Below are positions 6,573 to 7,181 of a DNA stretch of 64,000 nt, in pieces. The stretch lies in NCBI RefSeq assembly GCF_003334815.1, contig NZ_QOWO01000012.1; one strand, written 5' to 3'. The notes below the pieces were generated by a model that saw nothing but the letters and a program-made list of their open reading frames with translations, was not told where the DNA came from and made no database searches. The translations under genes were made by a program, and so were the position numbers. The number at the start of each line of letters is the position of its first letter. The first letter of the stretch is position 1. Source of the DNA: Escherichia coli. GTDB lineage: Bacteria > Pseudomonadota > Gammaproteobacteria > Enterobacterales > Enterobacteriaceae.

Positions 6573-7181
6573 ATGAAAAACAGGCTGCTGATCCTCAGCC
6601 TGCTGGTTTCTGTACCTGCCTTTGCCTGGCAGCCACAAACCGGCGACATCATCTTTCAGATCTCTCGCTCATCGCAAAGTAAAGCGATCCAACTGGCGAC
6701 CCATACCGATTATAGCCACACCGGTATGCTGGTGATACGCAACAAAAAGCCCTACGTTTTTGAAGCAGTCGGCCCGGTGAAATACACCCCGCTCAAGCAG
6801 TGGATCGCCCATGGTGAAAAGGGCAAATACGTTGTTCGCCGCGTTGAAGGCGGACTGAGTGTTGAACAACAGCAAAAACTGGCGCAAACGGCAAAACGTT
6901 ATCTCGGTAAACCGTATGATTTCAGCTTCTCATGGAGCGACGATCGCCAGTACTGTTCGGAAGTGGTGTGGAAGGTTTACCAGAACGCGCTGGGAATGCG
7001 CGTGGGCGAGCAGCAGAAGTTGAAAGAGTTCGACCTGAGCAGCCCACAAGTTCAGGCAAAGCTCAAAGAACGTTACGGCAAGAATATTCCGCTTGAGGAA
7101 ACGGTGGTCTCGCCACAAGCCGTTTTCGATGCGCCACAACTCACCACGGTCGCCAAAGAATGGCCGCTGTTTTCGTGGTAA
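6573..7181 (+). CDS. yiiX: Uncharacterized conserved protein YiiX (predicted papain-like hydrolase), signal peptide
   Basis: 202 aa ORF MKNRLLILSLLVSVPAFAWQP; position between metJ and rpmE. Confidence 0.85.
   Translation: MKNRLLILSLLVSVPAFAWQPQTGDIIFQISRSSQSKAIQLATHTDYSHTGMLVIRNKKPYVFEAVGPVKYTPLKQWIAHGEKGKYVVRRVEGGLSVEQQQKLAQTAKRYLGKPYDFSFSWSDDRQYCSEVVWKVYQNALGMRVGEQQKLKEFDLSSPQVQAKLKERYGKNIPLEETVVSPQAVFDAPQLTTVAKEWPLFSW

Follow-up and report, generated by a model that had tools for sequence, protein, structure and literature searches.

The 64,000-nucleotide stretch of E. coli DNA analyzed here (the window) contains five genes, yiiX, yiiS, yiiR, yiiQ and yiiG, and the question is what their products do and whether they act together. 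A sequence-only reading had described them as conserved genes of unknown function in a core context. The window is K-12-like, an identity check showed the genes to be 100% identical to K-12, and the RefSeq annotation of the identical DNA uses the same five names. They are genuine, intact, already catalogued K-12 y-genes from three loci without relation to one another, and they do not make up a system. The observation on these genes was correct but ordinary and already known; its residual value lies in YiiX. The best explanation as a whole, which we consider reasonably likely, is that of five catalogued y-genes among which YiiX would be a periplasmic permuted NlpC/P60 enzyme acting on fatty-acyl groups, with yiiX transcribed by read-through from metJ.

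Five genes at three loci

The five frames, claimed to be intact, were recovered as open reading frames at exactly the positions listed in Table 1. The family assignments were borne out by Pfam (Peptidase_C92 for YiiX, DUF406 for YiiS, DUF805 for YiiR, DUF1454 for YiiQ and DUF3829 for YiiG). Rule-based prediction also reproduced the proposed signal peptides of YiiX and YiiQ, the lipobox of YiiG and the membrane segments of YiiR, and found no sorting signal in YiiS. No NCBIfam model matched YiiR, YiiQ or YiiG, and searches of PDB sequences with these three proteins gave nothing meaningful. Against PHROGs, YiiX produced a weak, mis-named match and YiiR a marginal one.

Table 1. Positions of the genes and sequence features in the window (a slash marks the predicted cleavage position)
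Feature	Position	Strand	Length	Basis and remarks
metJ	6072..6389	+		Annotation; directly 5' of yiiX, same strand
BIME (two REP elements)	6419..6517	.		In loop of metJ terminator hairpin, metJ-yiiX spacer; sequence, compared with uninterrupted spacer
yiiX CDS	6573..7181	+	202 aa	ORF; RefSeq name yiiX
YiiX signal peptide, residues 1-18, MKNRLLILSLLVSVPAFA	6573..6626	+		Rule-based AFA/WQ site, predicted cleavage before Trp19
His49 codon, putative catalytic His	6717..6719	+		Precedes Cys (permuted order); invariant in alignment A1; triad in PMC3142127
Glu64 codon, putative third triad residue	6762..6764	+		Invariant in A1; PMC3142127
Tyr115 codon, putative oxyanion/P1-stabilizing Tyr	6915..6917	+		Invariant in A1; H-bond to fatty-acid head group in 2IF6 (PMC3142127)
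Cys128 codon (TGT), putative nucleophile	6954..6956	+		Sole Cys of YiiX; invariant in QYCSE motif
Bidirectional intrinsic terminator, AAAAAAAGCGCCGTGCGGCGCTTTTTT	7197..7226	.		Common to convergent yiiX and rpmE; sequence and minus-strand terminator calls
uspD (yiiT)	20746..21174	-		ORF, annotation; co-transcribed 3' of yiiS (PMC4222967)
yiiS CDS	21201..21500	-	99 aa	ORF; cytoplasmic DUF406 protein; first in yiiS-uspD operon
Sigma-E-type promoter, GAACTC-N16-TCAAA	21603..21629	-		Upstream of yiiS; sequence reading
yiiR CDS	21712..22152	-	146 aa	ORF; DUF805 inner-membrane protein
yiiQ CDS	22253..22852	+	199 aa	ORF; secreted DUF1454 protein
yiiG CDS	46226..47281	-	351 aa	ORF; DUF3829 lipoprotein

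Conservation was counted in 5,426 complete E. coli genomes with a threshold of at least 80% coverage. The core context held for yiiX (5,423 genomes) and for yiiS-yiiR-yiiQ (5,425), but not for yiiG, which reached the threshold in only 3,876 genomes and was partial in about 1,500 (about 28%). The one partial case that was inspected carries the annotation of a truncated pseudogene with a frameshift. The yiiG gene is not strictly core, and more than a quarter of E. coli can dispense with it.

The label of unknown function is still valid because a biochemical function has been demonstrated for none of the five proteins, but structures and regulation have already been published for YiiX and YiiS. 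The earlier reading had allowed for characterization of which it was unaware, and this exists in part, in the form of structures 2IF6 and 2K3I, the MetJ iModulon and the papers on sigma-E and YdeO. For functional studies of YiiX, YaeF, YebB, the four DUF families and DUF2459, the literature gave only structural-genomics, regulon and high-throughput mentions.

It is very improbable that the five genes, or yiiS-yiiR-yiiQ among them, constitute a single functional module. The latter three are adjacent and are kept together in E. coli, but YdeO induces yiiS-uspD and not yiiR (PMC4222967), yiiQ is oriented divergently from yiiR, and the taxonomic ranges are very unlike, DUF1454 being found in Enterobacterales only and DUF406 being described as restricted to Gammaproteobacteria (PMC2860719). 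Distances of 14 kb and 24 kb separate yiiX and yiiG from these three, and the genes around them are unrelated. With three separate loci, no common context and no family matched by the five proteins among the PADLOC defense-protein models, the statement that these genes are not a novel system stands.

YiiS matched PF04175 (DUF406, E 1.3e-28, Pfam) and NCBIfam NF007435 (197 bits, cutoff 130), and the NMR structure 2K3I differs from the YiiS of the window at one residue. YiiS, VPA0419 (2JZ5) and VC_A0919 (2KHD) share an alpha/beta fold with a three-stranded sheet like that of pterin-4a-carbinolamine dehydratase (PMC2860719), whose active-site residues are not conserved in these DUF406 proteins. 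The promoter upstream of yiiS differs from the GGAACTT-N16-TCAAA type by one mismatch (GAACTC for GAACTT), which is why an exact sigma-E pattern search found nothing. This site agrees with the experimental use of yiiS-uspD as a sigma-E reporter (PMC6941253), and the operon is also activated by YdeO (PMC4222967). YiiS is a small cytoplasmic alpha/beta protein with a DCoH-like fold, and sigma-E and YdeO control its production together with that of UspD. Its Cys8-x4-Cys13 pair is a candidate site for metal binding or redox activity.

YiiR matched the full PF05656 model (DUF805, E 9.5e-19) and contains four hydrophobic segments at residues 18-39, 44-64, 74-96 and 99-125 (rule-based); it is a four-helix DUF805 inner-membrane protein. 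YiiQ matched PF07305 (DUF1454, E 5.5e-92). Its predicted signal peptide ends in TTAAHA/QT by the same rule-based approach, and hydrophobic N-termini are common to its orthologs. The best 120 YiiQ matches, all with an identity of 81% or more, were too alike to serve for modeling, and a representative library was used instead. YiiQ is an Enterobacterales-restricted, predicted periplasmic alpha/beta protein (AF2 model, pLDDT 87.7) without a strong structural relative.

YiiG combines a profile match to PF12889 (DUF3829, E 4e-103) with a helical-bundle fold like that of solved DUF3829 proteins. Its rule-based lipobox LTGC places the lipidated residue at Cys22, followed by Asp23-Asp24, and Asp at position +2 recurs in the 16 enterobacterial-type orthologs that have a lipobox in the alignment. 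YiiG is a lipoprotein in which Cys-Asp-Asp is predicted to act as an inner-membrane-retention signal (Lol avoidance). A flexible linker, disordered to about residue 66, tethers a double helical bundle (residues 70-348) that resembles periplasmic sensor domains. The likeness to the DUF3829 proteins BT_1908 (3RH3) and BVU_3067 (4YJW) and to four-helix-bundle periplasmic sensor domains is generic; unlike those sensors, YiiG is a lipoprotein without a transmembrane signaling module. Candidates from a fold search were set aside as generic helical bundles, and a profile search of the PDB with YiiG gave no match. Cys84 and Cys131 of YiiG may form a disulfide, and mutations in the yiiG promoter and start codon have been reported under antibiotic selection (PMC11742677).

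YiiX sequence, structure and proposed chemistry

YiiX matched PF05708 (Peptidase_C92) over model positions 2-165 of 166 (E 3.3e-49, Pfam scan) and the NCBIfam equivalog NF007458 with 354.8 bits (cutoff 216). PDB entry 2IF6 is 98% identical, differing at 4 of 185 residues, and represents the same protein from another strain. The papain-like fold proposed earlier can be sharpened to a circularly permuted NlpC/P60 fold: both in YiiX and in an alignment of 17 orthologs at 53-85% identity (A1) His49 and Glu64 precede Cys128, the reverse of the canonical Cys-before-His order, and the canonical NlpC/P60 model PF00877 was absent from the Pfam scan. H49, E64, Y115 and C128 were invariant in A1. All 17 aligned orthologs have a hydrophobic N-terminus, and the crystallized 2IF6 chain begins at the predicted mature-end Trp. 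Orthologs at 46-60% identity occur in Gamma-, Beta- and Deltaproteobacteria, Bacteroidota and Holophagae. As judged from its sequence, YiiX is a family member with permuted residue order, four invariant, putatively catalytic residues and a predicted export signal.

Xu et al. re-refined 2IF6 in 2011 and placed a stearate-like fatty acid, modeled from electron density only, in the S1 tunnel with a hydrogen bond to Tyr115; the S1 pocket was argued to be unfit for peptide (PMC3142127). In the searchable literature no enzymatic activity, substrate or knockout phenotype of YiiX is reported. The co-crystallized fatty acid (PMC3142127) and the fact that activity has never been reported would suit a non-catalytic periplasmic lipid-binding or carrier protein. 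This is highly unlikely, as none of the 17 aligned orthologs, down to 53% identity, departs from the full Cys/His/Glu triad or from the Tyr, a pattern to be expected of an active enzyme rather than of a carrier.

YiiX most likely acts on fatty-acyl groups in the cell envelope; the reaction and the substrate themselves are what we infer. After export to the periplasm via its predicted cleavable signal peptide, YiiX would function as a circularly permuted NlpC/P60 cysteine enzyme with the triad Cys128/His49/Glu64 and Tyr115. The narrow hydrophobic S1 tunnel would take up a long-chain fatty-acyl group from an envelope lipid, and attack of Cys128 on the acyl carbonyl would give an acyl-thioester. 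Water could then resolve the thioester, in a deacylation of the amidase or phospholipase-A type, or the acyl group could pass to an acceptor. Phospholipids or lysophospholipids, lipoprotein N-acyl chains and lipo-amino acids are the candidate substrates.

It is unlikely that YiiX instead cleaves peptidoglycan, as a peptidase or amidase of the canonical NlpC/P60 kind. Such a role would agree with the predicted periplasmic location, with membership in the NlpC/P60 superfamily and with an older annotation as 'predicted peptidoglycan peptidase' (PMC6505713; P0107), and the adjacency of yiiX to pbpC in four MAGs fits a cell-wall role equally well. Against it, YiiX matches the permuted C92 family only and not the canonical model, its narrow, hydrophobic S1 pocket with a fatty acid inside was judged unsuitable for peptides (PMC3142127), and every characterized permuted relative has acyl chains as its target.

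Transcription and neighborhood of yiiX

The yiiX gene belongs to the MetJ iModulon and a ChIP-exo site has been reported (PMC11701608). A search of the stretch from metJ to yiiX gave no sigma-70-like promoter. When arrays of tandem AGACGTCT repeats were scored by script, the metJ-yiiX spacer (6390-6572) contained no met-box array; the sole nearby array, with 4 boxes and 24 of 32 matches, lies upstream of metJ at 5859-5890. A 16-mer met-box search with 3 mismatches allowed gave no hits. Read-through from the metJ promoters, which MetJ represses, is the probable source of yiiX transcripts in K-12 and would give yiiX the behavior of a MetJ-regulon gene without a role in methionine metabolism.

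In strains E302 and muskdeer13-4 the metJ-yiiX spacer is uninterrupted and measures 59 bp. The REP sequence has about 200,000 matches in E. coli genomes, and a REP-like Rfam match (ES036) covers positions 6440-6481. A terminator-like hairpin, interrupted by the BIME, must be passed by transcripts reaching yiiX from metJ, a point that runs counter to read-through; co-transcription is a proposal.

A true membership in the MetJ regulon, with YiiX serving methionine or sulfur metabolism, for example in hydrolysis of the N-acyl-methionine type, is quite improbable. The iModulon assignment with its ChIP-exo support (PMC11701608) and the position of yiiX directly 3' of metJ on the same strand are what this explanation has in its favor. 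However, the metJ-yiiX linkage is confined to Enterobacteriaceae, being present in only 8 of 80 species loci, all from enterobacterial genera near Escherichia, and yiiX lies elsewhere in the other lineages inspected. The spacer lacks a met-box array, YiiX is predicted to be exported whereas methionine biosynthesis is cytoplasmic, and co-expression with the MetJ regulon is explained by read-through transcription. Methionine control of yiiX is probably an Enterobacteriaceae-specific read-through effect.

The neighborhoods of yiiX were compared at the 80 species loci by clustering ORFs with GC3 weighting. In 6 Achromobacter species the gene of an Lnb_N (formerly DUF4105) membrane protein adjoins yiiX downstream; at one of these loci 37 bp separate the two genes, which share a strand. 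In E. coli B and in three enterobacterial genera yiiX is followed immediately by a gene for a papain-like lipoprotein (DUF2459/TIGR02117), which also occurs near yiiX in Variovorax with a dinB-like gene in between. A ynbA/ynbB/PlsC-like phospholipid operon is divergent from yiiX in 4 Budviciaceae, and in 4 termite-gut MAGs yiiX is flanked by pbpC and by a gene for a yfhM-type alpha2-macroglobulin lipoprotein. These neighbors point to lipid or envelope chemistry. A universal neighbor was rejected, none being common to all lineages across the 80 loci, so the contexts are lineage-specific associations, each of which may be plain synteny. About 95% of E. coli genomes no longer carry the DUF2459 partner, which implies that YiiX is independent of it.

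A more speculative proposal, which we regard as doubtful, is that YiiX forms the conserved core of an unrecognized periplasmic acyl-remodeling activity of diderms, whose targets, lipoproteins or (lyso)phospholipids, would be deacylated or trans-acylated. Ancestrally YiiX would have been paired with a second papain-like enzyme, either the DUF2459 outer-membrane lipoprotein (enterobacteria, Variovorax) or the Lnb_N membrane protein (Achromobacter), a partner since lost in most E. coli including K-12.

YiiX among permuted NlpC/P60 enzymes

Bacterial permuted NlpC/P60 enzymes such as Lnb, LnsA and Tox-Act1 have lately been shown to act on lipid or lipoprotein acyl groups. YiiX is a highly conserved housekeeping member present in several phyla, with a crystal structure that contains bound lipid, and its context (Lnb_N, DUF2459, ynbAB-like, yfhM-pbpC) offers concrete candidate substrates and partner genes. 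Two assumptions are corrected by the present analysis, namely the methionine control of yiiX, which is probably read-through, and the core status of yiiG.

The toxins Tox-Act1 and TseH are phospholipases that form sister clades of YiiX in the permuted NlpC/P60 tree; in the Gram-negative periplasm they act on PG and PE in a manner dependent on the catalytic Cys (PMC12994826). No significant sequence match between these toxins and YiiX was detected. They have immunity genes and a secretion-system context, whereas yiiX has no such neighbors and no match to a defense or toxin model. The phospholipase/acyltransferases LRAT and HRASLS (PLA-AT) share the permuted NlpC/P60 fold with YiiX and use an acyl-Cys thioester for phospholipase A1/2 and O-/N-acyltransferase reactions (PMC7387801). 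Unlike YiiX they are eukaryotic, membrane-anchored and assigned to PF04970, and a sequence-level match from YiiX was absent both in the Pfam scan and in the search of the PDB with the YiiX profile.

Lnb (DUF4105/Lnb_N) and LnsA are non-canonical lipoprotein N-acyltransferases (PMC11573676; PMC7387801). They work on lipoprotein acyl chains and are, like YiiX, members of the NlpC/P60 superfamily. In HHpred YiiX was the top-ranked homolog of LnsA (PMC7387801). In Bacteroides, triacylation requires Lnb, a polytopic protein, whereas YiiX is soluble; E. coli possesses Lnt already, and acyl transfer by YiiX is hypothetical. BcPPNE (BCE_A0238, PDB 3KW0; YaeF/YiiX family, MEROPS C92) shares its Pfam family with YiiX and is the sole PDB entry besides 2IF6 that the YiiX profile reached. 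Both proteins have the permuted His49/Glu64/Cys triad, a conserved Tyr and a hydrophobic S1 pocket (PMC3142127). BcPPNE is cytoplasmic, with lysine bound and a restrictive S1' site, whereas YiiX is predicted to be exported and has an open groove and a long, U-shaped lipid tunnel.

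Gene content and conservation

All five open reading frames (ORFs) lie exactly where the sequence-only reading had placed them, and each matches the Pfam family named there (see table); YiiX and YiiS are also matched by NCBIfam equivalogs. The gene names are identical in the RefSeq annotation of identical DNA, which gives the gene orders metB-metJ-yiiX-rpmE-priA, fpr-uspD-yiiS-yiiR-yiiQ-tpiA and frvR-yiiG-fdhD, and from 30001 to 55000 the window matches E. coli K-12 at 100% identity. The earlier localisation calls were reproduced by simple rules. These predict signal peptides cleaved at ...PAFA|WQ in YiiX and ...AHA|QT in YiiQ, a lipobox (LTGC) in YiiG and four hydrophobic segments in the membrane protein YiiR; no export signal was found by the same rules in YiiS, which had been called cytoplasmic. 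The earlier finding is correct but unremarkable: the five are already catalogued K-12 genes without an assigned function and, as had been claimed, make up no novel system. A literature search for a demonstrated biochemical function of YiiX, YiiS, YiiR, YiiQ or YiiG returned none.

Features of the five loci and of the gene that follows yiiX in E. coli B (window coordinates unless a comparison locus is named)
Feature	Position	Strand	Description
yiiX	6573..7181	+	202 aa ORF; Pfam Peptidase_C92, E 3e-49
Bidirectional terminator	7197-7226	both	ends yiiX and rpmE
yiiS	21201..21500	-	99 aa ORF; Pfam DUF406, E 1e-28
Sigma-E-type promoter GAACTC-N16-TCAAA	21629-21603	-	about 100 bp upstream of yiiS
yiiR	21712..22152	-	146 aa ORF; Pfam DUF805, E 1e-18
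yiiQ	22253..22852	+	199 aa ORF; Pfam DUF1454, E 6e-92
yiiG	46226..47281	-	351 aa ORF; Pfam DUF3829, E 4e-103
DUF2459 gene, E. coli B strain	L088 3616-4239		207 aa

The description of the genes as conserved in core context was examined in 5,426 complete E. coli genomes, with presence defined as coverage of at least 80%. It holds for yiiX (5,423 genomes) and for the yiiS-yiiR-yiiQ block (5,425), but not for yiiG, since only 3,876 genomes carry it at full length and about 1,500 keep only part of it. The one remnant inspected (comparison locus L003, 2500-3122) is annotated as a pseudogene, frameshifted and without either end. There it lies beside fdhD, and a carbohydrate porin gene adjacent to rhaM takes the place of the frv operon.

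For a core gene yiiX is unusually variable, with a DNA identity of only 90-95% in 2,291 genomes. The window copy (6573-7181) was compared with loci L086 and L087. Relative to strain E302 yiiX is 91.6% identical in nucleotides with 14 of 202 residues changed, while the surrounding genes metJ and rpmE are 99.4% and 100% identical and priA is 94.8% identical with almost exclusively synonymous changes. Rough dN/dS estimates from codon counts, about 0.13 for yiiX and about 0.02 for priA, suggest that yiiX is under purifying selection, weaker than that on priA.

YiiS, YiiR, YiiQ and YiiG

The NMR structure of YiiS (2K3I) has a fold like that of pterin-4a-carbinolamine dehydratase, the active-site residues of which are not conserved (PMC2860719). 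The gene forms one operon with uspD that is activated by YdeO, and yiiR is unaffected by YdeO expression (PMC4222967); yiiS has also been used as a reporter of sigma-E activity (PMC6941253). Cys8 and Cys13 of YiiS (C-x4-C; codons 21461-21479) are kept in V. cholerae VC_A0919, where Cys26 and Cys84 are not conserved, and the stretch that contains this N-terminal Cys8-x4-Cys13 pair was described as disordered by NMR. We infer that YiiS is a small stress-induced cytoplasmic protein, possibly metal- or redox-linked, that works alongside UspD.

The literature mentions the other three genes in high-throughput studies only: yiiR in an antibiotic screen, where one of its alleles was enriched, yiiQ as a Tn-seq hit for Salmonella desiccation, and yiiG through antibiotic-selected promoter and start-codon mutations (PMC11742677). 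The DUF805 protein YiiR has four predicted helices. YiiQ is a periplasmic alpha/beta protein with a fold without close solved relative. Its very small family has 111 representatives, many of them fragmentary, among 1.84 billion clusters and occurs in Enterobacterales only, where its carriers include the insect endosymbionts Sodalis, Serratia symbiotica and Fukatsuia.

In the AF2 model of YiiG (pLDDT 84.6) a disordered Pro/Ala/Glu/Lys-rich linker (residues 23-66) is followed by helical bundles. For E. coli lipoproteins it is an established rule that Cys followed by Asp-Asp is a Lol-avoidance signal, causing inner-membrane retention. Cys22-Asp23-Asp24 of YiiG, encoded at 47207-47215, is a strong predicted signal of this kind. 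Each of the 16 aligned enterobacterial-type orthologues with a lipobox shares the Asp at +2; more distant homologues have either Gly/Ser there or a standard signal peptide. Since Cys84 and Cys131 are both invariant, they could form a disulfide.

Transcription of yiiX

The metJ gene ends at 6389 on the same strand as yiiX, and a simple promoter scan of the spacer (6390-6572) found no sigma-70-like site. Nearby, met boxes form an array only at 5859-5890, within the control region of metB/metJ. Published work places yiiX in the MetJ iModulon, with a reported MetJ ChIP-exo site (PMC11701608). Two REP elements in the spacer form a BIME (about 6419-6517). In strains E302 and muskdeer13-4 the spacer is 59 bp long and forms a GC hairpin with a run of T residues behind it; compared with these, the BIME of the window interrupts the metJ terminator, lying in its hairpin loop. 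The simplest reading is that yiiX is transcribed by read-through from the MetJ-repressed metJ promoters. A methionine-related function of YiiX is unlikely because the metJ-yiiX linkage is limited to Enterobacteriaceae: among the 80 best species loci, metJ lies directly upstream of yiiX only in the 8 from this family.

Several strains that are otherwise 100% identical to the window carry a 1.3-kb IS621 somewhere within the metJ-yiiX-rpmE stretch. Another array resembling met boxes lies at 1893-1924; 22 of its 32 positions match four tandem AGACGTCT boxes, and presumably it is the operator that serves a further met gene where the window begins. Rfam matches at gathering threshold lie elsewhere in the window at 7461-7513 (-), 12125-12182 (+), 49043-49101 (+), 30880-30957 (+), 39802-39964 (-) and 25834-25875 (+). 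They comprise the L31 ribosomal-protein leader in front of rpmE, the ClpQY (hslVU) promoter element, a SECIS element close to the formate dehydrogenase genes, three copies of the REP/BIME-derived naRNA4, and ES036.

YiiX neighbours and the proposed acyl-enzyme

A scan with one genome per species gave 589 confirmed YiiX relatives. The protein is widely distributed and well conserved, because the best 80 of these are 46-93% identical and come from Gamma-, Beta- and Delta-proteobacteria, Bacteroidota and Holophagae. ORFs around yiiX in these 80 loci were clustered and recurrent clusters annotated; no universal neighbour emerged from this clustering. In 4 Budviciaceae (L015, L016, L020, L021) yiiX is divergent from a phospholipid-enzyme operon, which we take to resemble E. 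coli ynbABC, encoding a CDP-alcohol phosphatidyltransferase, a CDP-diglyceride-synthase-like protein, a PlsC-type acyltransferase and a hydrolase/methyltransferase. Genes for a yfhM-type alpha2-macroglobulin and PBP1C (pbpC), an adjacent pair in E. coli, stand on either side of yiiX in 4 Beta- and Delta-proteobacterial termite-gut MAGs (L040, L048, L064, L073); a CTEQ thioester motif can be read from the sequence of the yfhM-type protein, which matches PDB 4RTD and 4U48. In 6 Achromobacter (L033, L034, L036, L044, L049, L072) a gene for an Lnb_N (formerly DUF4105) membrane protein adjoins yiiX downstream, in L034 on the same strand with a gap of 37 bp. A DUF2459/TIGR02117 lipoprotein gene follows yiiX after 4-7 bp in Superficieibacter, Klebsiella spallanzanii and Phytobacter, and the family recurs two genes downstream in 5 Variovorax. 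DUF2459 and DUF4105 are both classed as papain-like (PMC10318531), and Lnb is a Bacteroides lipoprotein N-acyltransferase of the NlpC/P60 superfamily (PMC11573676).

The DUF2459 gene is polymorphic within E. coli. BLR(DE3) carries it 6 bp 3' of yiiX, and the encoded 207 aa protein begins like a lipoprotein. Of the 5,426 genomes, 288 have the whole gene and about 2,180 give a partial match only; in all 8 partial examples listed, such as O157:H7 Sakai, the remnant is the 5' end, of 81 bp or less. No trace was found in the yiiX-rpmE gap of the K-12-like window (7182-7241). Together with the same pairing in other genera, this polymorphism suggests that yiiX-DUF2459 was an ancestral two-gene unit of which most E. 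coli lost the second gene.

PDB entry 2IF6 is YiiX of another strain, with 4 differences. In its re-refined version, the hydrophobic S1 tunnel holds a stearate-like fatty acid bent into a U shape, with the head group bonded to Tyr115 (Xu et al. 2011, PMC3142127). His49, Glu64, Tyr115 and Cys128, the sole cysteine, are invariant in 17 aligned orthologues (identity down to 53%), all of which have a hydrophobic N-terminus. Conservation, neighbourhoods and relatives support a role for YiiX as a periplasmic enzyme that would form an acyl thioester on Cys128 with an envelope lipid or lipoprotein as substrate; we infer both this substrate and the type of reaction (hydrolysis or transfer). The single point to carry forward is the putative role of YiiX as a conserved periplasmic acyl-enzyme with lineage-specific papain-like partners. 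Among its permuted relatives, the phospholipases Tox-Act1 and TseH use PG and PE as substrates (PMC12994826) and LRAT and HRASLS are phospholipase/acyltransferases (PMC7387801); LnsA, with YiiX as its top HHpred homologue, has a part in lipoprotein N-acylation (PMC7387801). The permuted relatives of YiiX with known activity thus all process fatty-acyl groups.
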